NCBI GenBank assembly: GCA_045804265.1
Contig: JBJMNK010000116.1
Coordinates: 1,867-65,866 of the forward strand
DNA length: 64,000 nucleotides
Source: Gemmatimonadaceae bacterium
GTDB taxonomy: Bacteria > Gemmatimonadota > Gemmatimonadetes > Gemmatimonadales > Gemmatimonadaceae
Direction of reading: 5' to 3'
Shown: piece by piece, positions 3,100-62,521 of the stretch
Layout of the letters: every line of letters begins with the position of its first letter
Position numbering within the stretch: the stretch's first letter is position 1
Translations under genes and position numbers: made by a program
The notes under the pieces: generated by a model
What the model was told of the DNA's origin: nothing
Database searches by the model: none
What the model saw: the letters and a program-made list of their open reading frames with translations, nothing else

Positions 3100-4893
3100 A
3101 TGATCGAGCCACCGACGAAACCAACGCAGACGTCGCCTGACGCGCTGACGATGCATGCCGGGATAGCCGGCGTGTGCTCGGCGTGCGGCTCGAGGGTGAG
3201 CGACCCGATGCATCCATGCCCGAAGTGCGGGGCGGCCGTGTCCGGAGGCGGTTCACCCGTCGCGCAGAACGAACGGATGCGCGTGCGGTTGCAGGAGTCG
3301 GTCGGCGACAGCTACAAGCTGCTCGAGCTGCTCGGGCGCGGCGGGATGGGCATCGTCTTCCGTGCGCGCGAAGTCGCACTCGATCGCGATGTCGCACTCA
3401 AGGTGCTCGCGCTCGACCCGATCCTCGCACCGGACGCATACACGCGCTTCGAGCGTGAGGCGAAGATGGCGGCGCGGCTCGACCATCCGCACATCGTGCC
3501 GATCTTCGCCGTCGGGCAGCGGCAGAACGTTGCGTTCTACACGATGCGGCTCGTCCGCGGTGGAAGCCTCGAGGACCTGATCGGCGCGGGGAAGCAGATC
3601 TCGCTCGATCATGTCGTGAAGCTGCTCAAGGAAGTCGCGGCCGCGCTCGATCATGCACACCGGCAGGGAATCGTCCATCGCGACATCAAGCCGGCGAACG
3701 TGCTCCTCAGCGAGAGCGGGCACGCGATGGTTGCCGACTTCGGAATCGCCAAGGCGCTGAGCAACACCGATAACGGGGCGACGGGCACAGGCATCATCGG
3801 GTCGCCGGGGTACATGTCACCCGAGCAGTGGCGAGGCGCGGACATCGATGGGCGCGCCGACCAGTACTCGTTAGGCATCGTCGCCTACGAGATGCTCACC
3901 GGGCGCCGCCCGTTCGAGACGCCGCAGGTGCAGGACCTGCTTCGGATGCACTTGTCGGCCGAGATGCCGCCGCTGTCGCACTCGCGTCCGGGACTTCCCG
4001 AGGGGGTGGATGAAGCGCTCCGTCGCGCGCTCTCGAAGGATCCTGCCCAGCGCTTTTCGACGGTCACGGCGTTCGTCGATGCGCTCGCCGGGCTGCGTCC
4101 GGCGAGCGTGGGCGCAACCCAGCGCGGCCCGCGCTACGACAAGCGGTCAGCCGCAGCGGCGCCGAAGCGCAGCCTCGTCGGCGCACTCGTGCCGATCGCG
4201 CTGATCGCGGCGGTGGGAGCGGCGTTCGTGTTCCCGCAGACGAGGGACCCGATCATGCTGGCGCTGCAGCCGGCGATCGTGTCGGTCGAGGGGATGGCGG
4301 GTGTTCGCGATGCGGGCCCGGTGACGCCGGATTCGGTCGCCGCCCGCGACAGCATCGCGCTCGCCGCGCAGCTCGCGCAGCACGACAGCCTCGCCAGCGC
4401 CGCCGGCGTGACGACAGCCGCGGTGATGGGAGGCGATACGCTGGCCCTTCGCGACTCGGCCGGCCGCGGCACATTGGCGCCGGCGCCGATCGGCCTCGAC
4501 ACCTCGCTCGTTGCGATGGCCGCAACGCGAACTGCGCCGCGCATGCAGTACGGCTGGCTGCGGATCGTGATCAACGGCGGAACGGCGCCGGCGAAGATCG
4601 ACGGCGTACGCCAAGGCTCGACTCCGATCATGCGCCGCGTCGAGGAAGGCGAGCACCTCGTTACAGTCGAAGGCGCGGGCGATTCGTTCCTTCCGTCGCA
4701 GATCACGGTCACCGTCTCCGCGGGCGACACGGCGACTGCGGTGTTCGCGACACCGGACGCGATGCGACGCGCGAAGAGCGCACGTGGCGCGATCGACAGT
4801 ACTGCACCGGTGCCGGCTTCGTCGCCCGGTGCGGCGGCGGCCGGGACGCCCGTGAGCGCGCCCGTGGACAGCGCCGCGCACCCCCCGCGCTGA
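3100..4893 (+). CDS. Ser/Thr protein kinase with N-terminal zinc-ribbon, TM segment and C-terminal PEGA-like domain
   Basis: Zinc-ribbon CSACG...CPKCG. Kinase motifs GRGGMGIVF, VALKVL, HRDIKPANVLL, DFGIAK and GSPGYMSPEQ. TM segment LVGALVPIALIAAVGAAFVF. C-terminal region GWLRIVINGG...GEHLVTVEG...ITVTVSAGDTA. The upstream part of track ORF 2989.. overlaps the preceding gene and was rejected. Confidence 0.9.
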   Translation: MIEPPTKPTQTSPDALTMHAGIAGVCSACGSRVSDPMHPCPKCGAAVSGGGSPVAQNERMRVRLQESVGDSYKLLELLGRGGMGIVFRAREVALDRDVALKVLALDPILAPDAYTRFEREAKMAARLDHPHIVPIFAVGQRQNVAFYTMRLVRGGSLEDLIGAGKQISLDHVVKLLKEVAAALDHAHRQGIVHRDIKPANVLLSESGHAMVADFGIAKALSNTDNGATGTGIIGSPGYMSPEQWRGADIDGRADQYSLGIVAYEMLTGRRPFETPQVQDLLRMHLSAEMPPLSHSRPGLPEGVDEALRRALSKDPAQRFSTVTAFVDALAGLRPASVGATQRGPRYDKRSAAAAPKRSLVGALVPIALIAAVGAAFVFPQTRDPIMLALQPAIVSVEGMAGVRDAGPVTPDSVAARDSIALAAQLAQHDSLASAAGVTTAAVMGGDTLALRDSAGRGTLAPAPIGLDTSLVAMAATRTAPRMQYGWLRIVINGGTAPAKIDGVRQGSTPIMRRVEEGEHLVTVEGAGDSFLPSQITVTVSAGDTATAVFATPDAMRRAKSARGAIDSTAPVPASSPGAAAAGTPVSAPVDSAAHPPR

Positions 4894-4981
4894 CGCATCC
4901 TCTCGCGGCGGTTCAGCAGAGGGCACGCTTCTGGCGCTTGCGTCCATCGAGCAGCCACCTGGTGAACCTCTCAGGAACCGA

Positions 4982-5689
4982 ATGTCGAACGACGAGCAGT
5001 CATCTTTCCCCGACCTCCCAGCGGGCGGGGCTTCGATGCCCGGCAACGCCGAGCGGCGAAGCGCACGCCATGTCGCGAATCGCGCCTACATGGCGATCAA
5101 GGCGCAGCGCGCCGCCGATCGCACTCGCGTCGAGGACATCGCCGAGTCGCTGAACGAGTTCGCATCGTCGACGCCGTTCCTGATCTTTCACGCAATCTGG
5201 TTCCTCATCTGGCTGCCCTGGAACATCGGCGCGTTTCGACCGATCGGGCTCGAGCCGTTCGATCCGTATCCGTTCGGTCTTCTCACGATGATCGTCTCGC
5301 TCGAGGCGATCTTCCTTTCGATCTTCGTCCTGCTCGCGCAGAAGCGGGAAGCAGCGATCGCCGAGCTGCGCGAGGAGCTCTCGCTGCAGGTTGGGCTCTG
5401 GACGGAACAGGAAGTGACGAAGACGCTGCAGCTGGTGACGGGCCTCTATCGCCGACTCGGACATCCGCTCGCCGAGGACGTGGAGCTGCGGCAGATGCTT
5501 GGCCCACTCGACGTCCACGGAATCGAGGCGAGACTGCTCGCCGAAATCGACTCGTCGAGCAGGAGTCGCTCTAGCTCCGGCCCGTCGATCTCGAAGCCGG
5601 AGCGCGCGAAAGCCGAGACGAGGCCGTCGCCTGACGCTGCGCCTGCGGCTGCGTCGCCGATCCCGCCGGCGAACTTGCCACCGCTGTGA
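4982..5689 (+). CDS. DUF1003 family membrane protein
   Basis: The core FASSTPFLIFHAIWFLIWLPWNIG...DPYPFGLLTMIVSLEAIFLSIFVLLAQ is typical of DUF1003. The low-complexity C-terminal tail overlaps the convergent lipid kinase gene. Confidence 0.75.
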   Translation: MSNDEQSSFPDLPAGGASMPGNAERRSARHVANRAYMAIKAQRAADRTRVEDIAESLNEFASSTPFLIFHAIWFLIWLPWNIGAFRPIGLEPFDPYPFGLLTMIVSLEAIFLSIFVLLAQKREAAIAELREELSLQVGLWTEQEVTKTLQLVTGLYRRLGHPLAEDVELRQMLGPLDVHGIEARLLAEIDSSSRSRSSSGPSISKPERAKAETRPSPDAAPAAASPIPPANLPPL

Positions 5690-6578
5690 CGAGCTGCAGC
5701 GCGGCGGGCACGCACTCGACGCGGAGCTCGGGGCTGCGTGCGTCATGCAGCTCGCCGTCCACCTGGAAGCGAGGAGCGGTGACGAAGCGCAAGGTGAACG
5801 TGGCGCGCCTAACGGTCTTCACCGCGTCCACCGATAGGTGACGTCCGGCCATCACCGAGTGGAAGACGAGCAGGCGTCGCAGTACCGGCACGTCCTCGAC
5901 GGTGACGAGGTCGATCATCCCGTCATCGGGACGCGCACCCGGCGCGATCGGGAGCCCGCCGCCATAGCGAAAGCCATTGGCAGCAACCGCGAGCAGCAGG
6001 GGGCGAGGCCCGTTGCCGTCGCCGGGGTCGAACTCGACCGCGCGATAGCGGAAGATCTGCTGCAGTGCCGCCAGCCGATATCGCAACGCACCGCGAACGA
6101 CACGCTCGATCCCGCTCAACTTCTGCAGCGCCTCGAGGACGCCGACATCGAAGCCGAAGCCGGCGACGTTGAGGGCGTGGCGCCCGTCGACGCGGAGCGT
6201 GTCGACCGCACGCACGGGCCCCTCGACCGCAAGGCGCGCGAGCGTGACCCACGCGCGCGACGTCCCGCCGATCGAGGCGACGAAGTCGTTGCCGGTGCCG
6301 CCCGCGAGGAGAAGGACGCGGCAGCTCGCGCCGGCGCCGGCGTCGACGATCGCGCCGGTCGCCTTGCTCCACGTCCCGTCGCCGCCGAGGATCGCGATCG
6401 TGTCCGCGCCGGCATCGAGTGCGCGCCTGACGCTGCGCACCTCGTCGCCGGGCGCGGTCGTGAGGATCGTCTCGCGGGCACCGACACCGTCGAAGGCGCG
6501 CCTAACGGTGGGAAGGAGGCGCGCCGCGAGGCCGCCACCGGCGGCGGGATTGGCGATGAGATAAATCGAGCGAGGCAC
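5571..6578 (-). CDS. Diacylglycerol/lipid kinase family protein (YegS/LCB5-like)
   Basis: MPRSIYLIANPAAGGG...TIAILGGDGTWSKA...LLAGGTGNDFVASIG matches DAGK catalytic domain motifs. Confidence 0.85.
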   Translation of the reverse strand: MPRSIYLIANPAAGGGLAARLLPTVRRAFDGVGARETILTTAPGDEVRSVRRALDAGADTIAILGGDGTWSKATGAIVDAGAGASCRVLLLAGGTGNDFVASIGGTSRAWVTLARLAVEGPVRAVDTLRVDGRHALNVAGFGFDVGVLEALQKLSGIERVVRGALRYRLAALQQIFRYRAVEFDPGDGNGPRPLLLAVAANGFRYGGGLPIAPGARPDDGMIDLVTVEDVPVLRRLLVFHSVMAGRHLSVDAVKTVRRATFTLRFVTAPRFQVDGELHDARSPELRVECVPAALQLVTAVASSPAGSATQPQAQRQATASSRLSRAPASRSTGRS

Positions 6579-8150: not shown

Positions 8151-10202
8151 GTGATCACCCACCGGTGGTCGAGGGGCCCGCCGCCATCAATGCTGTCACG
8201 GCGCAGGGCCAGCGCGGCGGACAGCGGTGACCCGGAGCGGGCGTCGGACGTCACCTGCATAGACGGGGCGCGAGCCCCTCGCGGGTCGCGCCGGCAGGGA
8301 GCCGGGCGACGCGCGGGGAGAGCGTCGCACCTCCTTTCCAGTCAGCACCGCTTGTCGAAACGTTTGCAGCTCGGGCTCGCCGCCCGCAGCGTCCGCTTGT
8401 TCGCCGCGCCTAACGCGCGCCGCATCAGCCTCACGCTCCTCCTCTCGCTGGCCGTCGCGGTCGCCTCCGCATACGAGCCGCTCCTCCTCAAGCGCGTCGT
8501 CGACCGGCTCGGCGTCGCCACCGCGCTGGGTGCCAGCGGGGTTGCATCGCGTCATGCGCTCGTCGCGGTGGTGATGCTCTTCGCCGCCGTGCTGACCGGC
8601 CGCATCCTCGGCGCAGCCTGGGTGAGCACGTCGGCGTGCGCGGTGCGGCTGAACATGGAGTACCAGGTTCGCCAGCGGGTCGCGGCGAAGCTCAGCGTCC
8701 TGTCATCGAAGACGCATGGCGAGATCGGGACCGGCGGGCTCCGCTACGCGATCGACGAGAGTGCGCCGCAGAGCGCGCGTGCATTCAGCGACATCGTCTT
8801 CCGGCTCTTTCCGACGATCGCTTACGTCGCGGTGGCCGCGTGGGGGATGACGCATCTCGACGGCGCGATCAGCGCCGCGGTGCTGCTGCTCGCGCCGATT
8901 CCGGCACTCGTCGCGCTCGTTGCCAAGCGCGCGCAGACGCGGCGCGACCGCATGCTGCACGGGTTCTGGATGCGCCTCTGGGGGCGCTACACCGAGATGC
9001 TCAACGGGATGGGCACGGTGCGCGCGTTCGGGATGGAGCGCGTCGAGGAACGGCAGCTGATGCGCCGGATGCGCTGGGCGTTCGCCAGCATCCAGCGCGG
9101 GGTCCATGTCGATGCGCGCGTGACGGTCGCCGCCGGACTGGCCGAGCTCGCGGCGCGCGTGGTCGTCCTGACGTTAGGCGGGTTCCTCGTCGTGCGGGGC
9201 GAGCTCACCGTCGGCTCGCTGCTCGCGTTCCTCGGCTACGTCGGCGGCGTCTTCGCGCCGATCCAGCAGATGGTCGACCTGTACCCGACGGCGCGCAAGG
9301 CGGGCGTCGCGCTCGAATCGGTGTTCACCGTGCTCGACGCGGAAGAGGAAGCGCCCGACGTGCCCGAGGCGATGCCGTGCGCACCGATCCGCGGCAAGGT
9401 TACGTTCGAGGGTGTCAGCTTCGGGTATCGCGAGCATCAGCGCGCGCTCGACCAGTTCGACGTCGTCGTGAACGCCGGCGAGACGGTCGCGCTGGTCGGT
9501 CCGTCGGGAAGCGGGAAGTCGACGGTGTTCCGGATGCTGCAACGCGTGCACAACCCGACCAGCGGCCGGGTGCTGATCGACGGGGCCGACCTGCGGACGC
9601 TCGAGATCGCGACGGTGCGGCAGCAGTTCGGCGTCGTCCCGCAGGACGTGGTCCTGTTCAACGACTCGATCGCGGCGAACATCTCGTACGGGCGCCCGAC
9701 CGCGAAGCGCGGCGAGGTGATGGCGGCGGCGATGGCCGCGAACGCGCACGAGTTCATCATGCGGCTGCCTAACGGCTACGACACGCGCGTCGGCGAGGGC
9801 GGACGCGGGCTGTCGGGGGGCCAGCGGCAACGCATCGCGATCGCCCGCGCGTTCCTGGTCAACCCGGCGGTGCTGCTGTTCGACGAAGCGACCGCGGCAC
9901 TCGACACCGAGAGCGAAGAGGCGGTGCAGCAGGCGCTGCGTGCCTTCCGCCGCGGGCGGACGACGTTCATCATCGCGCACCGCCTGAACACGGTGCGCGA
10001 TGCCGACCGCATCCTCGTGGTGAGCGACGGCCGCATCGTCGGCGACGGAACACACGACGCGCTCGTCGCGAGCTGCCCAGCGTATGCACGACTGGTACGG
10101 CACCAGCTCGGCGAAGCGCCCGAACCCCCTGCGGACGAGGCGACAGCGCCGCAGGCACCCGGCCTGCCGATCATGGACGTCGTCGCCGAGCGCGCCGCCT
10201 AG
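8151..10202 (+). CDS. ABC exporter, fused permease/ATP-binding protein (MsbA-like); start uncertain (8151 GTG, 8190 ATG or 8352 TTG)
   Basis: Six-TM exporter domain followed by Walker A GPSGSGKST, signature LSGGQRQRIAIARA and Walker B LLFDEATAALD. About 90 aa precede TM1. Only 18 nt separate 8151 from the divergent HAD gene, so a later start is plausible. Confidence 0.9.
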   Translation: MITHRWSRGPPPSMLSRRRASAADSGDPERASDVTCIDGARAPRGSRRQGAGRRAGRASHLLSSQHRLSKRLQLGLAARSVRLFAAPNARRISLTLLLSLAVAVASAYEPLLLKRVVDRLGVATALGASGVASRHALVAVVMLFAAVLTGRILGAAWVSTSACAVRLNMEYQVRQRVAAKLSVLSSKTHGEIGTGGLRYAIDESAPQSARAFSDIVFRLFPTIAYVAVAAWGMTHLDGAISAAVLLLAPIPALVALVAKRAQTRRDRMLHGFWMRLWGRYTEMLNGMGTVRAFGMERVEERQLMRRMRWAFASIQRGVHVDARVTVAAGLAELAARVVVLTLGGFLVVRGELTVGSLLAFLGYVGGVFAPIQQMVDLYPTARKAGVALESVFTVLDAEEEAPDVPEAMPCAPIRGKVTFEGVSFGYREHQRALDQFDVVVNAGETVALVGPSGSGKSTVFRMLQRVHNPTSGRVLIDGADLRTLEIATVRQQFGVVPQDVVLFNDSIAANISYGRPTAKRGEVMAAAMAANAHEFIMRLPNGYDTRVGEGGRGLSGGQRQRIAIARAFLVNPAVLLFDEATAALDTESEEAVQQALRAFRRGRTTFIIAHRLNTVRDADRILVVSDGRIVGDGTHDALVASCPAYARLVRHQLGEAPEPPADEATAPQAPGLPIMDVVAERAA

Positions 10203-11552: not shown

Positions 11553-12479
11553 ATGAAACGACATCTCTCGAATTCGATCGTCTGCGGCCTCGCGGCCGTG
11601 GTCACCCTGGGTCTCGCAGCGACTGCGAACGCCCAGAGTACCGATTCAACGAGAAGCACGACGTCCACGCGAAGCACCGCGACCAGCCGTTCGCGCGTGA
11701 CGTCGTCGCGGCGGATCCCGGTCCGCAAGGATGCGGCGAACAACAACACGACATCGAGCGAGTCGGCCGGTGCGGTGGCACCGACGCCTAACGCTGACTC
11801 GCTGGCGGCGGCGCAGCGGCAGGACTCGATCGCCAACGCCGAGCGGATGCGTCAGGACTCGATCGCGAACGCCGACCGGATGCGACAGGACTCGATCGCG
11901 GCAGTGCAGCGTGCGCGGCAGGACTCGATCGCGAACGCGGAGCGGATGCGCCAGGATTCGATCGCGCGCGCCGACTCGATCGCGCGGTGGAACCTCGCGC
12001 ACATGCGTCGCGCCGGCACGGGCCTGTACTTCCAGGTCGCGGGCGGCCCGAGCTACCCGAAGAGTGACTTCGACAACGCGTTCGATCGCGGCTTCAACGT
12101 GACCGGGTCGGTCGGCTACCACCCGATGACGTCACCCGTCGGTATTCGCTTCGATGTCGGCTACGATCGTTTCAACCCGACGACCTCGATCACCGGCACG
12201 AGTGACAAGCTGGCGCTCTGGTCCGGTCTAGCCGACGTGACGCTTCGCATCCCGAAGATGTGGGCGGTCTCGCCGTACCTCCTCGGCGGCGGCGGTGTCG
12301 CGCACTTCTCGGCGTACAACGGTGGGAACACGATGACGAAGGGCCAGTGGAACGCGGGCGGCGGCATCGGGTTCGGGCTCGGCAACGTGAAGCTGTTCGT
12401 CGAGTCGCGCTACATGCACGTCGCGACGCCGAACACGGCGACGAGCTACGTCCCGATCGTCCTCGGCATCTCGCTCTGA
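11553..12479 (+). CDS. Outer-membrane beta-barrel protein with Ser/Thr/Arg-rich spacer and five 11-aa repeats
   Basis: AGGAG lies upstream. Signal peptide MKRHLSNSIVCGLAAVVTLGLAATANA|QS. Repeats RQDSIANAERM x5. The C-terminal region has alternating beta-strand patterns (GLYFQVAGG...VGYDRF...GGGGVAHF...FVESRYMH...IVLGISL) typical of small OMP barrels. Confidence 0.7.
   Translation: MKRHLSNSIVCGLAAVVTLGLAATANAQSTDSTRSTTSTRSTATSRSRVTSSRRIPVRKDAANNNTTSSESAGAVAPTPNADSLAAAQRQDSIANAERMRQDSIANADRMRQDSIAAVQRARQDSIANAERMRQDSIARADSIARWNLAHMRRAGTGLYFQVAGGPSYPKSDFDNAFDRGFNVTGSVGYHPMTSPVGIRFDVGYDRFNPTTSITGTSDKLALWSGLADVTLRIPKMWAVSPYLLGGGGVAHFSAYNGGNTMTKGQWNAGGGIGFGLGNVKLFVESRYMHVATPNTATSYVPIVLGISL
11820..11987 (+). 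repeat. In-frame 33-nt tandem repeat, about 5 units
   Basis: Unit CAGGACTCGATCGCSAACGCSGASCGGATGCGN, repeated head-to-tail and encoding (R)QDSIANAERM. Confidence 0.8.
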
Positions 12480-13324
12480 TGCAGCACGGTTTGCGCACGG
12501 CGTTGGCCGCGCTCCTGGTGGTCGCCGGAACACCGGCGATCGCCTCGGCGCAGCGCCACGCCGCGCGCACGCCGCGCGCCGAGCGCGCGCGGCAGGTAAG
12601 GCTCGAACGCGGACCGGACACCGCGTACACGATCGAAAGCGCGCCCGAGCCCGACACGCTGCCGACTTTCCGTTCGCGCAGCGACAGCCTGATGTCGGCG
12701 CGAACGCTGCGCGCAGCGGTGCGCGATCGGGCGTTGCGGCTGGTGGTGTCGATCGACCAGAAGCAGCTCTGGGTGATCGAAGGGTCGGATACGCTGCACA
12801 CCGCGGCGGTCAACGTCGGGATGGGGCGGTTGCTCGAGTTCGGCGGGCGGCGCTGGACGTTCGCGACGCCGCGCGGCGTGCGGTCGATCATCGCCAAGTC
12901 GGCGGCGCCGAAGTGGCACCCGCCGGACTGGGCGTACGCGGAAGTCGCGCGCGAGTACGATCTCAAACTCGCGCATCTTCCGGCGAAGGGCTCGGTGACG
13001 CTGCGCGACGGCCGCAAGCTGCTCGTGCGCGACAGCCTCGTCGGGATCATGATGCCGGACGGCTTCGCGCCGCTGCCGGTGGACGAGCACATCGTATTCG
13101 ACTCGACGCTGTTCGTCCCGCCGTTAGGCACCGCCAACCGCGAGATCGATGGCGAGCTGGGGAACTACCGGCTCGACATGGGCAACGGGTACCTGTTGCA
13201 TGGAACGTCGAGCGGATCGACGCGGCGTGCGGCGACGACGCACGGCTGCGTGCGCCTCGGCGATGACGACCTGCAGTGGCTGTACGACTTCGTTCCCGTC
13301 GGGACGAAAGTCTACATCTACTAG
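12479..13324 (+). CDS. L,D-transpeptidase (YkuD domain)
   Basis: The ATG overlaps the upstream stop (ATGA at 12477-12481). Signal peptide MQHGLRTALAALLVVAGTPAIASA. Catalytic motif LHGTSSGSTRRAATTHGCVRL. Confidence 0.85.
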   Translation: MQHGLRTALAALLVVAGTPAIASAQRHAARTPRAERARQVRLERGPDTAYTIESAPEPDTLPTFRSRSDSLMSARTLRAAVRDRALRLVVSIDQKQLWVIEGSDTLHTAAVNVGMGRLLEFGGRRWTFATPRGVRSIIAKSAAPKWHPPDWAYAEVAREYDLKLAHLPAKGSVTLRDGRKLLVRDSLVGIMMPDGFAPLPVDEHIVFDSTLFVPPLGTANREIDGELGNYRLDMGNGYLLHGTSSGSTRRAATTHGCVRLGDDDLQWLYDFVPVGTKVYIY

Positions 13325-51838: not shown

Positions 51839-52531
51839 TCACCGCGCGCCTCCCGTACCTGACACGGCGCCGTCGACGACCGCGATCGTCAGCCCATCCC
51901 ATCCCTTGCTCCCCACCGTCTGGATCGTCGTCGCCGTCACACGGGGATTGCTCCGCAGCATCTCGTTCAGCTTCCGCACCCCGCGCACGCTCGGGTCGGT
52001 GCTCGATGCATCCACGATCGCGCCGTCGCGGATGACGTTGTCGACGACGATCACCGCGCCGGGCGTCGCCAGCTTCATCGCCCAGTCGAAGTAGGACGGG
52101 ATGTTCGGCTTGTCGGCGTCGATGAAGATGAAATCGAATGGACCCTCCTGCTCCGAGCGGAGGCGGGGCAGCGTCTCGAGCGCGGCGCCGAGCCTGACGT
52201 CCACCACTCTATCGAGCCCGGCGCGGGCAATGTTGGCGCGGGCGACCGTCGCGTGCTTCTCGTCGGCCTCGAGCGTGACCAGCCGCCCGCCAGCCGGGAG
52301 CGCCCGCGCGAGCCAGATGGTGCTGTAGCCGCCTAACGTTCCGATCTCGAGGATCTTCCGCGCCCCGCGCAGGCGGGCGAGCATCGCCAGCAGCTTCCCC
52401 TGGTTCGGGGCGACGGCGATCTGCGGCAGGCCGGCTGCCGCGCTCGCCTCGAGCGCCGCGTCGAGCGTGTCGTCAGGGTCGACGAGCGCCTCGGTGATGT
52501 AGCGATCGACTTCGGTCCACTGCTCTTCCAT
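51839..52531 (-). CDS. Class I SAM-dependent O-methyltransferase (caffeoyl-CoA OMT family)
   Basis: ILEIGTLGGYSTIWLA...FDFIFIDADKPN...GAVIVVDNV motifs. Confidence 0.85.
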   Translation of the reverse strand: MEEQWTEVDRYITEALVDPDDTLDAALEASAAAGLPQIAVAPNQGKLLAMLARLRGARKILEIGTLGGYSTIWLARALPAGGRLVTLEADEKHATVARANIARAGLDRVVDVRLGAALETLPRLRSEQEGPFDFIFIDADKPNIPSYFDWAMKLATPGAVIVVDNVIRDGAIVDASSTDPSVRGVRKLNEMLRSNPRVTATTIQTVGSKGWDGLTIAVVDGAVSGTGGAR

Positions 52532-53285: not shown

Positions 53286-56003
53286 ATGCCGGGCACACTG
53301 GCCCCGATCACCAGCCCCCCTCGCATGCGCTCTCCATTCCTTTTCGTCCTCGCCTTCGGCACGTTCTCCGTCCCGGCCTGGGCGCAGCAGGGCACCAAGG
53401 CGCCTAACGTCACGACACCGCCGCGGACGATGAGCGCCGTTCGGCGGAACGGGCCGATCGTCCTCGACGGAAAGCTCGACGAGGCCGCGTGGGCGGCGGC
53501 GACGCCGAGCGGGGATTTCCTGCAGAGCTATCCCGCACCGGGGAAGCCGGCACCCGATCGCACCGAGGTTCGCGTCCTCTACGACGACGCGGCGCTGTAC
53601 GTCGGGATCCGGATGTTCGATGCGCACCCCGATTCGATCGCCGCCGGCCTCGCGCGGCGCGACGCGACCGCGGCGACCGGGATCTACTCCGACTGGGTGC
53701 ACCTGATCATCGACTCGTATCACGACCGCCGCACCGCGTTCCGTTTCTCGACCACGCCGCGCGCCGTGCAGAAGGACGTCTACACCTCGAACGACGGGAA
53801 CGAGGACATCAACTGGGACGCGATCTGGGAGGTCGGCACGCGCGTCGACTCGGCCGGATGGGTCGCCGAATACCGGATCCCACTCAGCCAGCTCCGCTTC
53901 GGCGACGAGCAGGGCGAGAGCCGAACGTGGGGATTCCAGGTCCAGCGCGACATCGCCCGCCGCAACGAGCGCGACACGTGGGCCCCGTGGACGCCTAACG
54001 ACGGCGGCTTCGTCTCGCGGTTCGGCGACCTGGTCGGGATCAGCGGCATCCGCGCGCCGGAGCGGCTCGAGGTCATCCCCTACGTCAGCTCGACGTTCAC
54101 CCGCGCGCCGGGCGACCCGGCCGATCCCTTCTTCCATGCGACGAACAGCCAGCCCAAGGTCGGCGGCGACCTCCGCTACGGCCTGCCGTTAGGCCTGACG
54201 CTGAGCGCGACGATCAACCCCGACTTCGGCCAGGTCGAGGTCGACCCGGCGGTGGTCAACCTGTCGGCGTTCGAGATCTCCTTCCCGGAGAAGCGGCCGT
54301 TCTTCCTCGAGGGGAGCGACGTCTTCAGCTTCGGCCAGGTCGTCAGGCAGAACGACTACGGCGGCCAGAGCTTCCTCTACTCGCGCCGGGTGGGGCGGCA
54401 GCCGCAGCTCGGCATCCCCGACAGCGCCCAGTTCGCCGACTTCCCGACCCAGACCACCATCGCCGGCGCGGCCAAGGTCACGGGCAAGAACGGACCGTGG
54501 ACGGTCGGCATCCTCGACGCCGTGACCACCGAGCAGCAGGCACAGCTCCTCTCGGAGAACGGCACGCGCTTCGAGCGGGCGGTCGAGCCGCTGACCAACT
54601 ACTTCGCCGGGCGGCTGCGCCGCGACTTCCGCGCCGGGGCGACCACGGTCGGCGCGATGATCGAGAACACCAACCGCGCGTTAGGCGACACGGTCTTCAC
54701 CCCGCGGCTGCGCGCGAACGCGACCTTCGGCGGGATCGACTTCGAGCACAACATGAAGAAGCGGGCATGGGCGCTGAGCGGGTTCGCCGCCGCGAGCACC
54801 GTCCGCGGCAGCGCCGACGCGATCGCGGCGACGCAGCGCAACAGCACGCACAACTTCGCCCGCCCCGACGCACCATACCTCAGCTACGACCCGACGCGGA
54901 CCTCGCTCGACGGCTACATCAGCGAGCTGGCACTGGCCAAGCGCGGCGACGTGTTCGGCTCGATCGCGGTGAAGACGACCAGCCCCGGGCTCGAGCTCAA
55001 CGACCTCGGCTTCCAGAGTCGCACCGGGTACAAGGCAGTCTCGACGCTGATCGGGAAGTCGAGCTACACCGCAACGAAGCACCTGCAGAGCTGGACCACG
55101 TTCGTCTACCAGAACGACGCGTGGAACTACGGCGACCGTCCGATCTTCCACGGCTACGCCGGGCAGGCCAGCGCCACACTGAGAAACTTCTGGGGGGGTG
55201 ACGTCGGTGTCACCTACGCACCGAAGTTCTACGACGACAACCTCCTCCGAGGCGGCCCCGAGGCGGCGCAGCCGACGAGCACCTACGCGAACGTCAACGT
55301 CAACAGCGATTCGCGAAAGCCGGTCGTGATGAACCTCGGGCTCGCGTACGCGCACGATGTGCTCTCCGGTTATTCCAAAGGGGCGAACCTCTCGCTCGAC
55401 CTGCGGCCGACGTCGAACATCCATGTCAACCTCGGGCCCAGCTTCAGCCAGCTCTATGACACCGAGCAGTATCGCGCCTCAGTGAGCGACCCGCTGGCGA
55501 CCAACACCTTCGGCCGCCGTTATGTCCTCGCGGCGCTGCGGCAGAACACCCTCTCGCTCGACACACGGATGGACGTGACGTTCACGCCGCGCCTGAGCTT
55601 CGTCATGTACGCGCAGCCGTTCGTCTCCGCGGGACGCTACAACTCGTTCAAGGAGTTCCTCACCCCCGGGCAGACCGCGTTCAAGGTCTACGACCCGGCG
55701 AAGGGCGAGATCTCCTACAACGCGACGACGCAGCGCTACACGATCGATCCCGACGGCACCGCCGGCCCGGCGCCGAGCTTCACCATCGGCCAGCCGAACT
55801 TCAACATCCGCTCGCTGCGAGGCAACGCCGTGCTGCGCTGGGACTATCGTCCCGGCTCGGCGTTCTACGTCGTCTGGCAGCAGGAGCGCAGCGGCTTCCT
55901 GCCGTTAGGCCAGTTCGAGACCCGCCGCGACGTCGGCGCGATCTTCCGCACCGTGCCGACGAACGTGTTCCTGATCAAGGCGACGTACTGGATCGGCCGC
56001 TGA
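53286..56003 (+). CDS. DUF5916/CBM9-like domain outer-membrane protein (start 53286 or 53325)
   Basis: Signal peptide MRSPFLFVLAFGTFSVPAWA. LDGKLDEAAWAAA...VLYDDAALYVGIRMFD...DWVHLIIDSYHDRRTAFRFSTTPR. It is a paralogue of 30495..32945. Confidence 0.8.
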   Translation: MPGTLAPITSPPRMRSPFLFVLAFGTFSVPAWAQQGTKAPNVTTPPRTMSAVRRNGPIVLDGKLDEAAWAAATPSGDFLQSYPAPGKPAPDRTEVRVLYDDAALYVGIRMFDAHPDSIAAGLARRDATAATGIYSDWVHLIIDSYHDRRTAFRFSTTPRAVQKDVYTSNDGNEDINWDAIWEVGTRVDSAGWVAEYRIPLSQLRFGDEQGESRTWGFQVQRDIARRNERDTWAPWTPNDGGFVSRFGDLVGISGIRAPERLEVIPYVSSTFTRAPGDPADPFFHATNSQPKVGGDLRYGLPLGLTLSATINPDFGQVEVDPAVVNLSAFEISFPEKRPFFLEGSDVFSFGQVVRQNDYGGQSFLYSRRVGRQPQLGIPDSAQFADFPTQTTIAGAAKVTGKNGPWTVGILDAVTTEQQAQLLSENGTRFERAVEPLTNYFAGRLRRDFRAGATTVGAMIENTNRALGDTVFTPRLRANATFGGIDFEHNMKKRAWALSGFAAASTVRGSADAIAATQRNSTHNFARPDAPYLSYDPTRTSLDGYISELALAKRGDVFGSIAVKTTSPGLELNDLGFQSRTGYKAVSTLIGKSSYTATKHLQSWTTFVYQNDAWNYGDRPIFHGYAGQASATLRNFWGGDVGVTYAPKFYDDNLLRGGPEAAQPTSTYANVNVNSDSRKPVVMNLGLAYAHDVLSGYSKGANLSLDLRPTSNIHVNLGPSFSQLYDTEQYRASVSDPLATNTFGRRYVLAALRQNTLSLDTRMDVTFTPRLSFVMYAQPFVSAGRYNSFKEFLTPGQTAFKVYDPAKGEISYNATTQRYTIDPDGTAGPAPSFTIGQPNFNIRSLRGNAVLRWDYRPGSAFYVVWQQERSGFLPLGQFETRRDVGAIFRTVPTNVFLIKATYWIGR

Positions 56004-56250: not shown

Positions 56251-56315
56251 TTGTTTCGCGCACCGCTCACCAGATGCACGGAACAACGGTTGACCTGCGT
56301 GACAGGGGACTGGCG

Positions 56316-57659
56316 TTAGGCGCCGATGCCCGCCGCCAGCAGCGTGAATGCCAGTCCCGCCACGCCGATGATCGTCTCCGCGACTGTCCACGTCGCCAGC
56401 GTCTGCGGGACGGTCATGTCGAAGTATTCCTTGATCAGCCAGAACCCCGAATCGTTGACGTGTGACAGCACGAGCGATCCGGCGCCGGTCGCGATCACGA
56501 GGAGCTCAGCGCTCGTGCCGGGAACCAGAAGGGCGATCGGGGCGACGATGCCGGCGGCGGTCGTCATCGCGACGGTTGCCGAACCGGTCGCGACGCGGAT
56601 CAGGGCGGCGATCGACCAGGCGAGCAGCAGGGGCGACGCGTGCGAGGTCGCGGCGATTCCGGCGATGGCGCTGCCGACACCGCTCGCGATCAGCACCCTG
56701 TTGAAGCCGCCGCCGGCGCCGATGACGAGGATGATCGCCGCGGTCGGGGCGAGGCAGTCGTTGGTGAACTTGAGGATGTCGTGGCGGGTGAATCCCTGCC
56801 GCGCGCCTAACGACCAGAAGGAGATCAGCAGCGCGATCAGCAGCGAGACGACCGGGTTGCCGGCGAAGTCGAGCGCCTGGCGAACGCGGTCGCTGCTGCC
56901 TGACGTCATGTCGGCCACGCTCGCCGCCATCATCAGGATGACGGGCACGAGCACCGTCAGCACCGCGACGGCGAACGACGGCATCGCCGTCGGCGCCGTC
57001 CCTTCCAGAATTGCGGCCATCGGGTTGTCGCGCGCGAGCCGGATGCGCGGCGCTACCCACGACGCGTAAATCGGCCCGGCCAGCGCCGCCGTCGGCAGCC
57101 CGATCAGCAGCGACCAGAGGATCGTCTTCCCGACGTCGGCGTGATATGCGCCGACCGCGAGCATCGCCGCCGGATGCGGCGGCACCATCCCGTGCACCAC
57201 CGACAGCCCGGCGACGAGCGGGATCCCGATCTTCACCAGCGAGAGCCCGGTGCGCCGCGCGATCGTGAACACGAGCGGGATGAGCAGGACGAACCCGACC
57301 TGGAAGAAGACCGGGATCCCGACGATGAAGGCGACGAACATGATCGCCCAGTGGACGCGCCGCTCGCCGAACCGACCGATCAGCGTCGTCGCGATTCGCG
57401 TCGCGCCCCCCGACTCGGCCATCATCTTCCCGAGCATCGTCCCCAGCCCGACGACGACGGCGATGAAACCGAGTGCGGTTCCGACGCCCTCCTGGAAGGC
57501 GCCGACGACGCCGCCTAACGGCATCCCGGCCGCCCCGCCGAGCGCGAGCGAGACGACCACCAGAGCGACGAACGGGTGCAGCCGGAAGCGCGCGATGAGG
57601 ATGATCAGCGCGACGACCGCGCCGCCGGCGAGGAGGAGGAGCCGGGCGTCGTGCGTCAC
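56316..57659 (-). CDS. GntP family permease (gluconate:H+ symporter family)
   Basis: 447 aa and about 12 TM segments. Its overall pattern, including GAFQEGVG, matches GntP-family permeases. GTG start overlapping the gluconokinase stop. Confidence 0.9.
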   Translation of the reverse strand: MTHDARLLLLAGGAVVALIILIARFRLHPFVALVVVSLALGGAAGMPLGGVVGAFQEGVGTALGFIAVVVGLGTMLGKMMAESGGATRIATTLIGRFGERRVHWAIMFVAFIVGIPVFFQVGFVLLIPLVFTIARRTGLSLVKIGIPLVAGLSVVHGMVPPHPAAMLAVGAYHADVGKTILWSLLIGLPTAALAGPIYASWVAPRIRLARDNPMAAILEGTAPTAMPSFAVAVLTVLVPVILMMAASVADMTSGSSDRVRQALDFAGNPVVSLLIALLISFWSLGARQGFTRHDILKFTNDCLAPTAAIILVIGAGGGFNRVLIASGVGSAIAGIAATSHASPLLLAWSIAALIRVATGSATVAMTTAAGIVAPIALLVPGTSAELLVIATGAGSLVLSHVNDSGFWLIKEYFDMTVPQTLATWTVAETIIGVAGLAFTLLAAGIGA

Positions 57660-58246
57660 GCGTCATCCTCCGATGGTGGCTTGCCCACGCCCCGCGGTGC
57701 GGTGCGAGCCCCCATGTTCGCCCTGATGCGCGACGTCAGCTGCGCGATGATCTCGTCCGGCGCCTGCTCGGCGTCGTAGATCCAGGCGCCCTCGTCGGGC
57801 GACGGGATTTCGAGCGTCGCGAGCTGGCTGTCGAGCAGCACCGCCGGCATGTAATGTCCGTGCCGGTTCTCCAGTCGCTCGGCGATCAGCGGGCGCGGCG
57901 CGGTGAGGAGTATGAACTGCACGTCGGGATCGCCGCCGCGCAGCAGGTCGCGATAGCTGCGCTTGAGCGCCGACGCGGCGATGACGAGTCCCTTGCCGGC
58001 GCGCCGGGCGTCGAGCAGCCGCGCGGCGAGCGCGGCGAGCCAGCCCTGGCGGTCGGCATCGGTGAGCGGGGTCCCCGACCGCATCCGCGCCACGTTCTCC
58101 GGCGGATGGTAGTCGTCGCCCTCGGCGAAGTCGCTGCCTAACGCGCGGGCGAGCCGCGAGCCGATCAGCGACTTTCCCGCGCCGGAGACTCCCATCACGA
58201 CGTAGCGACCAGTGTCCAGTGCGGCCTCGAGTGCAGAGGGTGGCAT
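57656..58246 (-). CDS. gntK: Gluconokinase
   Basis: P-loop VVMGVSGAGKSLIGSRLA, then DDYHPPENVARM and SALKRSYRDLL. Only the last 196 codons of the 675-aa track ORF are credible. Confidence 0.85.
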   Translation of the reverse strand: MPPSALEAALDTGRYVVMGVSGAGKSLIGSRLARALGSDFAEGDDYHPPENVARMRSGTPLTDADRQGWLAALAARLLDARRAGKGLVIAASALKRSYRDLLRGGDPDVQFILLTAPRPLIAERLENRHGHYMPAVLLDSQLATLEIPSPDEGAWIYDAEQAPDEIIAQLTSRIRANMGARTAPRGVGKPPSEDDA

Positions 58247-58381: not shown

Positions 58382-60244
58382 ATGCTGCTCCTCGCACTCG
58401 CACTCGCCGCCTCGACTACGATCGCCGGCACGACCACGCACCCGGTCGCCGACGTCGTGCCTAACGACAACCGCATACCGGCTGGACGTCTCGACGGGGG
58501 AGTCCTCACTCTCCGCGTCGTCGCCGAGGACGCAACCTTCTACCCGGAGACGAAGCGCGGGCCGGGAATCGCCGTGTATGCGTTCGCCGAGGAAGGAAGC
58601 GGACCGACCGTGCCGGGGCCGTTGATTCGCGTGCCGGCAGGCACCGAGATTCGTGTCTTCCTGCGCAATGCGCTCGCCACGCCGCTCTGCGTCCGTGGGC
58701 TGCAGGACCACACGACCTCGATGCTCGACACGGTCGACATCGCAGCGGGTGCGACGCGCGAGGTGCGCTTCCGCGCGAACTCGGCGGGAACATTCATCTA
58801 CTGGGCGCGCGCGACGCAGGATGGGACCGGGTTTGGCTGGAGCCAGGACTCGCAGCTCACCGGCGCTTTCATCGTCGACCCGCCGAACACGAAGCCGCGC
58901 GCCGATGAGCGGATCATGGTCATGACGCTCTACGCCGACACGCTCGACCAGAACGGGCATGAGGTGCGTCGCGAGCCGATCACCATCAACGGCGTCGCCT
59001 GGCCGTGGACGGAGCGCCTGACGTACACAGTCGGCGACACGGTGCGCTGGCGCGTCCTCAACGCCACTATCGCGAACCACCCGATGCACCTGCACGGGTT
59101 CTACTTCGACGTCACCAGCAAGGGCGACACGACGCGCGACACCGTCTACACGCCGGTACAGCGCCGCAAGGCAGTGACCGAGATGCTCACTCCCGGCGCG
59201 ACGATGTCCGTTGCCTGGATCCCGACGAGGCCGGGGAACTGGCTCTTCCACTGCCATCTCATCTATCACATCGACGCCAGCCGCAGGCTCGCCGACGCGG
59301 TGCCGGTGGGCTACGAGCACAATCACGCCTTCGACGGGATGTCGGGGCTGGTGATGGCGATCCAGGTCGCACCGGCGCACGGCGCGGTCGCCACCGCGCC
59401 CGACCCAATTGCCCGCCGGCGCATCTACCTCTTCATCGACGAAAGGCCTAACGTTTTCGGCGACCGTCCCGGCTACGCTTTCGTGCTCCAGCGCGACAGC
59501 ATGCCGCCAGCGGTGGATTCGGCGCCATCCCCCAGCTCGACGCTGGTGCTCCACCGCAACGAGCCGACCGAGATCGTCGTCGTCAACCGGCTGCAAGCCG
59601 GTCACGCCAGCATCCACTGGCATGGCATCGAGCTCGAGAGCTTCTATGACGGCGTCGGTGGCTGGAGCGGAGCAGGGGATCATCTCGCGCCGGTGATCGC
59701 CCCGGGTGATTCATTCGTCGTGCGGATGACTCCCGATCGCGCCGGGACTTTCATCTATCACACGCATGTCGACGAGGGGAAGCAGCTCACGTCCGGGCTC
59801 TATGGCCCGCTGATCGTCCTCGCCGAGGGCGCCGCGGTGGACACCACCGATCGCATCTTCCTCATCGGCGACCCGGGCCCGACCGACACGCCGCGCCTCG
59901 TCGTCGCGCCCTTCATCAACGGTTCGACCACACCACCGCCGCTCGAGCTGCGCGCCGGCACTACGCATCGCATCCGCTTCGTCAGTATCTCCGGGGCGTT
60001 CGTGCGTCGTGTGCGGCTCATCTCCGAGACTGGCATCGAGCGCTGGCGCGCCGTAGCCAAGGACGGCGCCGACCTTCCGCTCCGTCAGGCCACCATGCGC
60101 AACGCGCAAGTCGACCTCGGCCCCGGCGAGACCGCCGACTTCGAGGTGCGCCGGGACAAGCCCGAAGTCCTGACAATGGAGATCGTGACCGCGCCGGCGC
60201 AGAAGCGGCCGCACCTGATGAAGATCCCGGTGATCGTGCGGTGA
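58382..60244 (+). CDS. Multicopper oxidase family protein (secreted)
   Basis: GGAGGG lies upstream of the ATG. Copper ligand motifs HPMHLHG, HCHLIYH, IHWHGIE and YHTHVDE. Confidence 0.8.
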   Translation: MLLLALALAASTTIAGTTTHPVADVVPNDNRIPAGRLDGGVLTLRVVAEDATFYPETKRGPGIAVYAFAEEGSGPTVPGPLIRVPAGTEIRVFLRNALATPLCVRGLQDHTTSMLDTVDIAAGATREVRFRANSAGTFIYWARATQDGTGFGWSQDSQLTGAFIVDPPNTKPRADERIMVMTLYADTLDQNGHEVRREPITINGVAWPWTERLTYTVGDTVRWRVLNATIANHPMHLHGFYFDVTSKGDTTRDTVYTPVQRRKAVTEMLTPGATMSVAWIPTRPGNWLFHCHLIYHIDASRRLADAVPVGYEHNHAFDGMSGLVMAIQVAPAHGAVATAPDPIARRRIYLFIDERPNVFGDRPGYAFVLQRDSMPPAVDSAPSPSSTLVLHRNEPTEIVVVNRLQAGHASIHWHGIELESFYDGVGGWSGAGDHLAPVIAPGDSFVVRMTPDRAGTFIYHTHVDEGKQLTSGLYGPLIVLAEGAAVDTTDRIFLIGDPGPTDTPRLVVAPFINGSTTPPPLELRAGTTHRIRFVSISGAFVRRVRLISETGIERWRAVAKDGADLPLRQATMRNAQVDLGPGETADFEVRRDKPEVLTMEIVTAPAQKRPHLMKIPVIVR

Positions 60245-60259
60245 TCGCGCGTTAGGCGG

Positions 60260-60979: not shown

Positions 60980-61108
60980 GGTGCGGATAGTATCGCCGGG
61001 TCGCACGCTGCCACAACCGCGTCACCCTCAGCCTTGCGGGGCGCTCATGGAAGGGGCATGCTCTTCAGCCCAGCGGATTCCCTATCAGCGAAATGCGCGG
61101 AGGACATC

Positions 61109-62521
61109 ATGAACATCGAAGCGCTCGAGCGCGAGTTCCGAGGCGAGATCCTGACGGCTGAATCGCCCGGCTACGAGGAGGCCCGCCACATCTGGAATGC
61201 GATGATCGACAAGCGACCGGCCGCGATCGCGCGCTGCCGCAATGCGGACGACGTCGTCGCTGCGGTCCGCTTCGCGGCGCGGGAGGGAATCTTCCCCGCA
61301 GTGCGCGGCGGCGGTCACAATGCCGCCGGACTGGCGATGGTCGATGATGGACTCGTGATCGACGTCTCGCCGATGAAGCGCATACGCGTTGACACCGACG
61401 CGCGGACTGCCGTGGCCGAGACCGGGCTCACCTGGGGCGAGTTCGACCGCGCGACGCAGGCACACGGGCTGGCGGTCACCGGCGGACTGATCTCGAGCAC
61501 GGGGATCGCCGGGCTCACGTTAGGCGGCGGCGTCGGCTGGCTGATGGGGCAATGCGGACTCTCCTGCGACAACACGCTCTCGTACGACGTGGTCACTGCG
61601 AACGGCGAGATGATCACCGCCAGCGCCGACGAACATCAGGACCTGTTCTGGGCGCTGAAGGGCGGTGGTGGCAACTTCGGCGTCGTCACTTCGATCACGT
61701 ATCGCCTCTATCCGGTCACGCAGGTGATCTCGGGAATGCTGATTCACCCGATCGCGCGGGCGCGCGAGGTGCTCACCTTTTATCGCGATTTCGTCTCCGC
61801 CGGCCTCCCCGATGAACTGGTGATCTACGCTTCGGCCATCACGACGCCGGAAGGGGTGCCGGTGATCGCGCTGATCCCCGCGTACACTGGAAAGGACCTC
61901 GCGGAAGGCGAGCGTATCCTCGCGCCGCTGCGCGCGTTCGGTCCGCCGGTCGTCGACATGGTGCAACGGATGCCCTACCTCGCGATGCAGTCGATGATCG
62001 ATCCAGCATGTCCTTACGGAAAGATGCGCAGCTACTGGAAGTCGCACTTCCTCAGCGCGCTCCCCGACGCGGCGATCGAAACCTTCGTGCAGCACGCCGA
62101 GCAATGCACGTCGCCGCGTACGTTCGTGATCATCGAGCACGCGCACGGCGCGGCGGCTCGCGTCGCGCCCGACGCGACCGCGTTCCCGGTTCGCGAGCAC
62201 GAGTTCAACCTCGTCGTGCTCAGCCTCTGGGACGACGCGAGCGACGACGCGCGGCAGATTGCGTGGACACGCGCCTTCTATCAGGCGATGCAGCCCTGGT
62301 CGGCGGCGCTGGTGTACGTCAACGCCCTCAGCGACGACGACGGCGGTCGTGTCGCCGAAGCGTACGGACAGAACTTCGAGCGGCTCGCCGACGTGAAGGC
62401 GAAGTACGATCCGGGAAACATGTTCCGGCGGAACCAGAACGTACCGCCGGCGCGGGTTTCAGGCGGGGCAGGGCTGCCGATGCGCGACGAGTCGGCGGTG
62501 TGGAGCGCGCCGCCGGCCTGA
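61109..62521 (+). CDS. FAD-binding oxidoreductase (FAD-linked oxidase / BBE-like family)
   Basis: GGAGGA lies upstream of the ATG. VRGGGHNAAGLA...GGLISSTGIAGLTLGGGVGWL...DLFWALKGGGGNFGVVT. C-terminal BBE-like region KAKYDPGNMFRRNQNV. Confidence 0.85.
   Translation: MNIEALEREFRGEILTAESPGYEEARHIWNAMIDKRPAAIARCRNADDVVAAVRFAAREGIFPAVRGGGHNAAGLAMVDDGLVIDVSPMKRIRVDTDARTAVAETGLTWGEFDRATQAHGLAVTGGLISSTGIAGLTLGGGVGWLMGQCGLSCDNTLSYDVVTANGEMITASADEHQDLFWALKGGGGNFGVVTSITYRLYPVTQVISGMLIHPIARAREVLTFYRDFVSAGLPDELVIYASAITTPEGVPVIALIPAYTGKDLAEGERILAPLRAFGPPVVDMVQRMPYLAMQSMIDPACPYGKMRSYWKSHFLSALPDAAIETFVQHAEQCTSPRTFVIIEHAHGAAARVAPDATAFPVREHEFNLVVLSLWDDASDDARQIAWTRAFYQAMQPWSAALVYVNALSDDDGGRVAEAYGQNFERLADVKAKYDPGNMFRRNQNVPPARVSGGAGLPMRDESAVWSAPPA

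Follow-up and report, generated by a model that had tools for sequence, protein, structure and literature searches.

Words driven to high abundance across a whole genome are known from only a handful of bacterial groups, and are among the clearest cases of a force on DNA overriding codon choice and even protein sequence. The uptake signal sequences (USS) of Pasteurellaceae (AAGTGCGGT core) and the DNA uptake sequences (DUS) of Neisseriaceae (GCCGTCTGAA) have a described coding footprint, comprising doubled tripeptides with reversed-peptide controls, a codon-linked frame bias and few copies in genes without homologues (Findlay & Redfield 2009, PMC2817400). The cyanobacterial word HIP1 (GCGATCGC) is a hyper-abundant 8-mer whose function is still under debate (PMC13756078), and integron attC sites have the consensus core GTTRRRY and inverse core RYYYAAC (PMC3053210). 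The present analysis concerns another such word, the 8-mer CGTTAGGC (reverse complement GCCTAACG), in a 64-kb stretch of contig JBJMNK010000116.1 (the window, always meaning this whole stretch) from a Gemmatimonadaceae soil bacterium. The word is an example of the uptake-sequence or HIP1 kind in a new phylum, Gemmatimonadota, with use of the rarest codon, identity to the integron core site and lineage-dependent specificity as its distinctive features. No published account of it was found, a literature search for the 8-mer returning just primers and unrelated matches.

The likeness of its footprint to that of USS and DUS extends to a frequency of about one copy per kb, on both strands and in genes and spacers, a lineage-specific distribution, a strong codon-linked frame bias, encoded tripeptides enriched 1.3-2.1-fold with reversed peptides as control, copies at variable protein positions, a scarcity of copies in foreign-looking genes, and the presence of ComEC, ComEA-like and PilT genes in carriers. 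Unlike USS and DUS, the Gemmatimonadota word has an 8-base rather than a 9-12-base core, its top frame uses the rarest sense codon of the genome where the preferred frames of USS and DUS use preferred codons, inverted pairs at terminators are few, and competence genes do not track the word. With HIP1 it shares hyper-abundance, 8-base length, roughly kb spacing, conservation within a clade and embedding in genes (PMC13756078); HIP1, however, is palindromic with known methylases, whereas the Gemmatimonadaceae word is asymmetric and has no methylase linked to it. Finally, GTTAGGC and GCCTAAC match the attC core and inverse core letter for letter, in the version used by the resident integrons of the order. 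An attC site, however, consists of RYYYAAC, an imperfect palindrome of 57-141 bp and GTTRRRY, in arrays beside intI, whereas more than 99% of word copies are solitary, without partner box and palindrome, inside ordinary genes, and integrase presence does not track the word. The copies are not themselves attC sites.

Abundance of the word in the genome

The genome to which the window belongs (G000) is a metagenome-assembled genome of 3.99 Mb, 67.6% GC and 91% completeness, in which a self-trained codon-usage caller, whose calls were not curated, predicted 3,428 genes (87% coding). Copies were scored on either strand. The window holds 65 copies (31 on +, 34 on -), where dinucleotide-preserving shuffles predict 0.96 and reach 4 at most, and the genome holds 3,479 (1816 on + and 1663 on -), the observed/expected ratio of CGTTAGGC being the highest of all 8-mers in G000. 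Spacing is near-exponential and averages 1.1 kb, one or more copies are present in 53% of genes, and density is 0.97/kb in intergenic and 0.79/kb in coding DNA. The edges of the word are sharp, with weak flanking preferences for non-T at two bases 5' and a purine immediately 3'. The enrichment is present at the DNA level: intergenic copies number 508 against 20.7 expected, a 25-fold excess, and their flanks match those of coding copies (weak R-S 5' and R-G 3').

Copy density climbs with the typicality of a gene's codon usage, from 0.46 per kb in codon-atypical genes to 0.95 per kb. The largest word-free stretch of G000 (contig C39:1204-16223, L164) is a foreign defence island of atypical codon usage encoding a C5 cytosine methylase, Vsr, an HATPase_c_3 protein and a GmrSD-type restriction enzyme. 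The word also distinguishes resident from foreign DNA in metagenome bins.

An 8-mer over-represented throughout core genes might also be a maintenance signal of the Chi or KOPS (FtsK-orienting polar sequence) kind, read directionally in recombination or segregation, and word-bearing phage DNA could then be protected from nucleases. The known signals of that kind are strongly co-oriented with replication; the word, however, had no replication-strand skew in G000, where bins of positive GC skew contain 309 copies in one orientation and 310 in the other, and those of negative skew 234 and 219, and the window's copies divide 31 to 34 between its strands, leaving such a signal extremely improbable.

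Reading frames, rare codons and stop codons

Sorted by gene calls, the genomic copies comprise 1816 read as xCG-TTA-GGC (Leu-Gly), 752 as G-CCT-AAC-G (Pro-Asn), 67 as C-GTT-AGG-C (Val-Arg), 102 as xGC-CTA-ACG (Leu-Thr), 234 at gene boundaries and 508 in intergenic DNA, the corresponding window counts being 32, 20, 3, 2, 3 and 5. The first-pass annotation of the window, made from the sequence alone, had arrived at 32, 21, 3, 2, 3 and 4, which is correct within one or two copies: the copy at 19703, given there as Leu-Thr, is now intergenic, and that at 13440 is now Leu-Thr. The three copies it described as supplying stop codons were exact.

The Leu-Gly copies of the window lie at 3869-3876, 9172-9179, 13122-13129, 18558-18565, 32872-32879, 42875-42882, 43307-43314, 44983-44990, 45715-45722, 46350-46357, 47529-47536, 48950-48957, 49991-49998, 54187-54194, 54679-54686, 55903-55910 and 61518-61525 on the + strand, and at 18980-18987, 21724-21731, 22891-22898, 26184-26191, 26694-26701, 29030-29037, 33103-33110, 35556-35563, 36264-36271, 36874-36881, 51219-51226, 52331-52338, 56805-56812, 57513-57520 and 58136-58143 on the - strand. 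Pro-Asn is encoded by copies at 518-525 (in a gene on the - strand), 21086-21093, 24539-24546, 34097-34104, 34181-34188, 38141-38148, 38912-38919 and 51587-51594 (+), and at 2906-2913, 8408-8415, 9767-9774, 11786-11793, 14544-14551, 41974-41981, 44306-44313, 48150-48157, 53402-53409, 53993-54000, 58459-58466 and 59446-59453 (-). Those read as Val-Arg are at 5807-5814, 6500-6507 and 20621-20628 (all -), and those read as Leu-Thr at 31108-31115 (-) and 13440-13447 (+), the latter in a doubtful gene call and possibly non-coding. The doubtful open reading frame (13431-13928, -) overlaps the leader of an Asn-Gly-Thr repeat gene. Intergenic copies occupy 19703-19710, 30388-30395, 60250-60257 and 63721-63728 (+) and 40092-40099 (-). 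The stop codons are CGT-TAG at 15132-15139 (-), ending the gene at 15134-15958 (-), CGT-TAG at 62538-62545 (-), ending the gene at 62540-63076 (-), and GCC-TAA, read on the - strand from the copy at 56314-56321 (+), ending the gene at 56316-57659 (-). Genome-wide, the word supplies the stop codon of 251 genes (7.5%), with 193 of 811 TAG stops reading CGT-TAG-GC and 58 of 332 TAA stops reading GCC-TAA-CG.

Across the genome 1816 of 2177 TTA codons (83%) lie inside the word, as do 32 of the 35 in the window, in line with the earlier impression that most window TTA codons belong to it. The exception then pointed out near 31946 is real (CCG-TTA-TGG, TTA at 31947-31949, +), and another TTA outside the word, at 17691-17693 (+), stands in the one-mismatch context CGG-TTA-GGC. 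The first-pass annotation had expected TTA, CCT, AGG and CTA all to be very rare, which holds for TTA and CTA, the two least used sense codons once the word is set aside (0.31 and 0.51 per 1000), and does not hold for CCT and AGG, which are moderately rare (2.3 and 2.8 per 1000). The canonical word holds 22% of CCT and 2% of AGG codons, and 78% of CCT codons lie outside it. TTA is uncommon elsewhere, as the earlier proposal required. Genes for tRNAs reading TTA, CTA, CCU and AGG were all found, including tRNA-Leu(UAA). The word needs masking in annotation and codon-usage work on Gemmatimonadota, because the usage of TTA, AGG and TAG is otherwise misread.

A concentration of this kind could arise if TTA (and CCT) were selected as codons, for example slow or regulatory ones, the word being a by-product. 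TTA codons dependent on bldA in Streptomyces are an example of regulatory codons. The 83% of TTA codons inside the word, the standing of the TTA frame some 10-fold above the other classes in this genus and the presence of a tRNA-Leu(UAA) gene would suit such a function. However, the reverse-complement orientation, intergenic DNA and stop positions are all enriched as well, copies are densest in the genes with the most typical codon usage, and xCC-TTA-GGC occurs in 2 copies against 1,816 of xCG-TTA-GGC, so that it is the full 8-mer that counts and not the TTA codon. Selection at the level of translation appears very improbable on these grounds.

Peptide supply and distortion of the proteome

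Of the peptide sites in G000 able to accommodate the word, it occupies 49% of the 3683 [SPTA]-L-G, 78% of the 961 x-P-N-[VADEG], 3.5% of the 1926 Val-Arg and 5.7% of the 1775 Leu-Thr sites. Occupancy of Leu-Gly sites varies with the base 3' of the word, being 68% before A, 53% before G, 42% before T and 23% before C, as in spacers. Were the frames to mirror dipeptide abundance under neutral synonymous choice, with no force on DNA, the abundance of Leu, Gly and Ala-type residues would fit, [SPTA]-L-G being the commonest compatible class. The frame distribution does not, however, track dipeptide frequency: occupancy differs 14-22-fold between classes of similar supply, motif-free synonymous usage predicts 1.8-18 copies per frame class, and intergenic DNA is enriched 25-fold as well. 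Peptide supply with neutral codon choice is refuted as an explanation.

The proteome itself is distorted in the favoured frames. In comparison with within-protein shuffles, [SPTA]LG is found 3683 vs 2872 times (1.28-fold, reversed peptide 0.96) and x-P-N-[VADEG] 961 vs 455 times (2.11-fold, reversed peptide 1.20), and the Val-Arg and Leu-Thr peptides have no excess over the same shuffles. By this excess, extra peptides account for some 1,300 of the 2,568 copies in the favoured frames. About half of the in-frame copies come from amino-acid change rather than synonymous recoding. Added Pro-Asn is exemplified by the penicillin amidase gene of the window, in which the copy at 38141 faces PPNG, PASG, PKSG or PANG in homologues and that at 38912 lies in a variable, indel-rich loop. 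With 83% of one codon, 7.5% of stop codons and some 1,300 additional peptide sites attributable to one word, the effect size is unusually large.

Conservation and recoding in relatives

Three relatives, each sampled at 240-490 kb rather than as a whole genome, were used for alignment: the sister species G005 (81% amino-acid identity, syntenic across the window), G019 from another genus (62% amino-acid identity, 73% GC at third codon positions (GC3), 1.2 word copies/kb), and the word-poor G022. Copies are maintained between sister species, the identical 8-mer being present in G005 at 62% of Leu-Gly, 53% of Pro-Asn, 4 of 5 Val-Arg and 4 of 6 Leu-Thr copies of G000, compared with 16-18% for ordinary 8-mers in the same phases. 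In G019 the word is likewise present at 23% of the Leu-Gly copies of G000 and at 19% of its Pro-Asn copies.

In G022 the dipeptides are written CTC/CTG-GGN (30 of 69 Leu-Gly) and CCG-AAY (8 of 28 Pro-Asn), as the first-pass annotation had predicted for relatives lacking the word, and the other aligned copies face different residues or gaps. No alternative word or 'dialect' was found in the 292 kb of G022. Word-borne Pro-Asn lies at less conserved dipeptides than Pro-Asn outside the word (p = 0.017), and the corresponding difference for Leu-Gly was not significant (p = 0.11). The depletion of CTG at xCG-Leu-GGC (CTC 589, CTG 82) was considered as a sign of the mutational path and this reading was withdrawn, because a word-free relative also prefers CTC over CTG before Gly (23 vs 3).

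A degenerate fourth base and codon phase

The two favoured frames share a single codon phase: on whichever strand the gene lies, bases 2, 5 and 8 of the word fall at wobble positions. The two disfavoured frames likewise share a phase, in which bases 1, 4 and 7 do so, and the remaining phase has TAG or TAA inside the word in both orientations. Among the 24 one-mismatch variants of the word in G000, solely CGTCAGGC, in which base 4 is changed from T to C, is enriched everywhere: in intergenic DNA (218 observed vs 37.5 expected) and as C-GTC-AGG-C (360 vs 16), G-CCT-GAC-G (335 vs 23), xCG-TCA-GGC (162 vs 25), CGT-CAG-GC (119 vs 29) and xGC-CTG-ACG (411 vs 171). The remaining two AT-to-GC transitions of the word are depleted, so the excess of CGTCAGGC is not one of general decay. 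The driven motif in this genus is CGTYAGGC, with T about four times stronger than C.

In the window, the C variant is read as Val-Arg (C-GTC-AGG-C, wobble C) at 2792-2799, 50783-50790 and 54341-54348 (+) and at 6425-6432, 23280-23287 and 52192-52199 (-), and as Leu-Thr (xGC-CTG-ACG, wobble G) at 26127-26134, 28383-28390, 34959-34966 and 37596-37603 (+) and at 17803-17810, 42920-42927, 44036-44043, 44716-44723, 44752-44759, 45946-45953, 48011-48018, 54193-54200 and 59016-59023 (-). In the other phase it occurs as Pro-Asp (G-CCT-GAC-G) at 15859-15866, 16596-16603 and 34118-34125 (+) and 17771-17778 (-), and as Ser-Gly (xCG-TCA-GGC) at 56898-56905 (-).

The abundance of the variant depends on phase. 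Across G000 the disfavoured phase holds 169 canonical and 771 variant copies, and counting both raises occupancy to 22% of Val-Arg and 29% of Leu-Thr sites. What a base 4 set by codon bias predicts is borne out in the relatives. G005 follows the same pattern, with 15 canonical and 48 variant copies in this phase and 8 intergenic variant copies vs 1.8 expected. The other genus contrasts with both: G019, whose GC3 is lower, uses all four frames (Leu-Gly, Pro-Asn, Val-Arg and Leu-Thr at 193, 107, 120 and 67), its disfavoured phase holds 187 canonical and 16 variant copies, and no excess of the variant was found in its intergenic DNA. Between G000 and G019 the phase ratio differs at p = 5e-72 and the canonical-to-variant proportion at p = 8e-93. 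Relative to each genome's own motif-free synonymous usage, odds ratios are 42-161 over all four frames of G019, 39-60 for Val-Arg and Leu-Thr in G000 and G005, and 135-190 for Pro-Asn, falling to about 60 once sites of amino-acid change are removed. The first-pass annotation had left as a puzzle why one open frame is favoured about 10:1 in each orientation; this is now largely explained by the degenerate base 4, the excess of the TTA frame being the part that remains. Phase typing without gene calls, by GC3 periodicity, was tried and dropped for its high cross-talk (169 true disfavoured copies, 322 by pattern count).

The frame analysis amounts to a specificity profile of the word's reader, namely eight bases, with base 4 tolerant of C in one genus and strict in another, and this profile gives concrete probes for finding that reader.

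Distribution across genomes and in viral contigs

Word counts were surveyed in about 300 genomes, and genes were surveyed by profile in 41 relatives. Each of the 12 genomes of the window's genus has 1,000-2,700 copies, and counts in other genera of Gemmatimonadaceae reach 6,360. Within the same order, two other families also include carriers, a single genus in one and two genera in the other. Outside the order, no genome surveyed exceeds the control word. The distribution is lineage-specific and patchy, one genus spanning G297 (66 copies) as well as G244 and G301 (about 3,900-4,100). G297 and its congeners form a natural on/off pair by which the word's gain or decay could be dated.

ComEC was found in 40 of the 41 relatives, PilT in all 41 and a ComEA-like protein in 39, and the presence of ComEC, PilT, ComEA and IntI across these relatives did not track the word. 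A conserved neighbourhood recurs in many genomes of the order (for example G033:C34, G035:C5, G013:C2, G003:C284, G008:C115 and G010:C557), with a ComEA-like helix-hairpin-helix gene and a PilT gene 2-3 kb apart. An orthologue of this ComEA-neighbouring PilT copy was not found in the 91% complete G000.

The word is also present in viral contigs. L234 (IMGVR_UViG_3300049057_000028), of 62% GC and encoding large and small terminase subunits, has 24 solitary copies in 11.8 kb, a density above that of any host genome sampled, and L180 is similar with 10 copies in 12.5 kb. Such a word-rich viral contig fits a prophage sharing the history of its host, and fits equally a cell-wide repair process or selection. 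Two low-GC (32%) viral contigs, L208 and L222, were rejected as word-rich, their copies being tandem repeats related by descent and an unrelated phenomenon; one repeat unit is about 108 nt long, and the other is the 18-nt CAATTGCACGTTAGGCGA.

A probable force acting on DNA

The intergenic enrichment, the maintenance of copies, the recoding of orthologues and the occupancy of compatible sites support the core reading of the first-pass annotation, in which the DNA word is under a force that runs counter to codon preference. We consider it probable that this force acts on DNA, and not on protein or messenger RNA, and that the frame pattern is what coding constraints let through. Such a force would favour CGTTAGGC on either strand and anywhere in resident DNA, with base 4 tolerating T or C in this genus (CGTYAGGC). 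In the stop-bearing phase the word would survive at gene ends alone, there supplying the 251 stop codons, since TAG or TAA is present in both orientations. Where bases 1, 4 and 7 are at wobble, a change at base 4 is synonymous (GTT/GTC-AGG, CTA/CTG-ACG) and high GC3 together with codon bias would pick C, with the result that most driven sites carry CGTCAGGC and the canonical word looks rare. Where bases 2, 5 and 8 are at wobble, a change at base 4 would replace Leu (TTA) with Ser (TCA) or Asn (AAC) with Asp (GAC), so that the canonical word stays in place as xCG-TTA-GGC or G-CCT-AAC-G. Copies originate in two ways, from Leu-Gly and Pro-Asn dipeptides already present that are recoded synonymously and from amino-acid changes where the protein tolerates them, and are maintained once formed. 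The likeliest force may be a molecular drive of the uptake-sequence type, operating through natural transformation, a reading suggested by the footprint and held tentatively, at a little less than even confidence.

Several observations weigh against this explanation. The Leu-Gly (TTA) frame stands about 500-1000-fold over motif-free usage in G000 and G005, whereas the other frames reach about 40-190-fold and intergenic DNA 25-fold; a uniform force combined with a codon filter therefore fails quantitatively. The TTA frame is over-used about 10-fold in this genus, an excess that the present explanation leaves unexplained. Conservation of the variant copies between G000 and G005 is little above baseline, with 16 of 63 identical and 6 of 63 canonical in the partner, so that the variant may be weakly favoured or transient and not a second functional form. 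Further, the 59 Leu-Thr and Val-Arg copies of G019 correspond in G000 to none of the canonical word and 3 of the variant. As regards uptake in particular, ComEC, PilT and ComEA-like genes are as frequent in word-poor as in word-rich relatives, and thus do not discriminate the driver, and a phage contig bears the word at 2 per kb.

The odds ratio of the TTA frame is near 1000 in G000 vs 111 in G019, TTA outside the word making up 0.3% vs 2.9% of Leu codons and Leu-Gly occupancy being 49% vs 39%. To the same unexplained excess belongs the partial word xGG-TTA-GGC (GGTTAGGC), which is favoured in the Leu-Gly frame alone (85 vs 0.9 expected in G000) and is not enriched in intergenic DNA (24 vs 20.7). 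One possible reading is that TTA within the word is a protected state, in which single-base exits either change the amino acid or give the poor codons TTG or CTA, losing the word. A conversion of ancestral disfavoured-phase copies from T to C in this genus was considered and is unsupported, the variant being present in G000 at 3 of the 59 sites; the disfavoured-phase copies of G019 look like lineage-specific additions.

Methylation, repair and integrons as alternative drivers

An alternative to uptake is that repair or gene conversion is biased towards the word, phages included, in the manner of a methylation or mismatch-repair site such as HIP1 or the Vsr/CCWGG system. The 8-base length and the density are HIP1-like, the sharp specificity with a single tolerated transition is typical of an enzyme recognition site, and the 24 copies in 11.8 kb of phage DNA are easily explained by a cell-wide repair bias, which keeps this alternative alive. 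The word is non-palindromic, however, and no methyltransferase family was seen to track it, Vsr alone having been tested across genomes, and altogether a repair or methylation driver seems unlikely. Vsr itself was rejected as the driver: it is present in 4 of 41 relatives and absent from 11 of 12 genomes of the genus and from G019, and the G000 copy adjoins the C5 methylase on the foreign word-free island, the only Dcm-Vsr pair found.

The word could instead have originated as the attC core (GTTRRRY), spread by an integron integrase, or an enzyme related to one, through its activity or its binding. Bases 2-8 of the word, GTTAGGC / GCCTAAC, fit the core and inverse-core consensus (PMC3053210), cassette arrays of relatives (G027:C80, G027:C95 and G025:C3) are bounded exactly by GCCTAAC(A) and (C)GTTAGGC, and integron integrases score above the family cut-off in 27 of 41 relatives. 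Set against this, only 14 attC-like pairs occur among the 3,479 copies of G000, true arrays being seen in relatives only. Many word-poor genomes encode IntI, and in G019, which carries the word more densely than any other relative sampled, it is a frameshifted pseudogene. An integron origin is thus improbable. We know of no integrase activity that writes solitary core sites into reading frames.

A further possibility, which is speculative and quite unlikely, is that the word may serve as a self-recognition signal for incoming or single-stranded DNA, as an uptake sequence or another DNA-processing target, recruited from or co-evolved with the attC core of resident integrons and relaxed at base 4 in one genus. 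If true, it would for the first time extend uptake-type signals beyond Proteobacteria and, also for the first time, tie such a signal functionally to integrons, and transformation-type exchange and cassette capture would share one recognition sequence.

In word-poor relatives the few copies cluster in cassette arrays (L162, G027:C80:1-8000; L159, G027:C95:1-20000; L161, G025:C3:1-12000), with attC sites of about 90-100 nt lying one cassette (about 500-700 bp) apart and a partial intI at G027:C80:6419-7148. In G000, outside the window, C50:6092-7192 contains a partial integron integrase (model positions 123-314, 254 bits) that adjoins an attC-like pair GCCTAAC...GTTAGGC at 6092-6223 and looks like an integron remnant.

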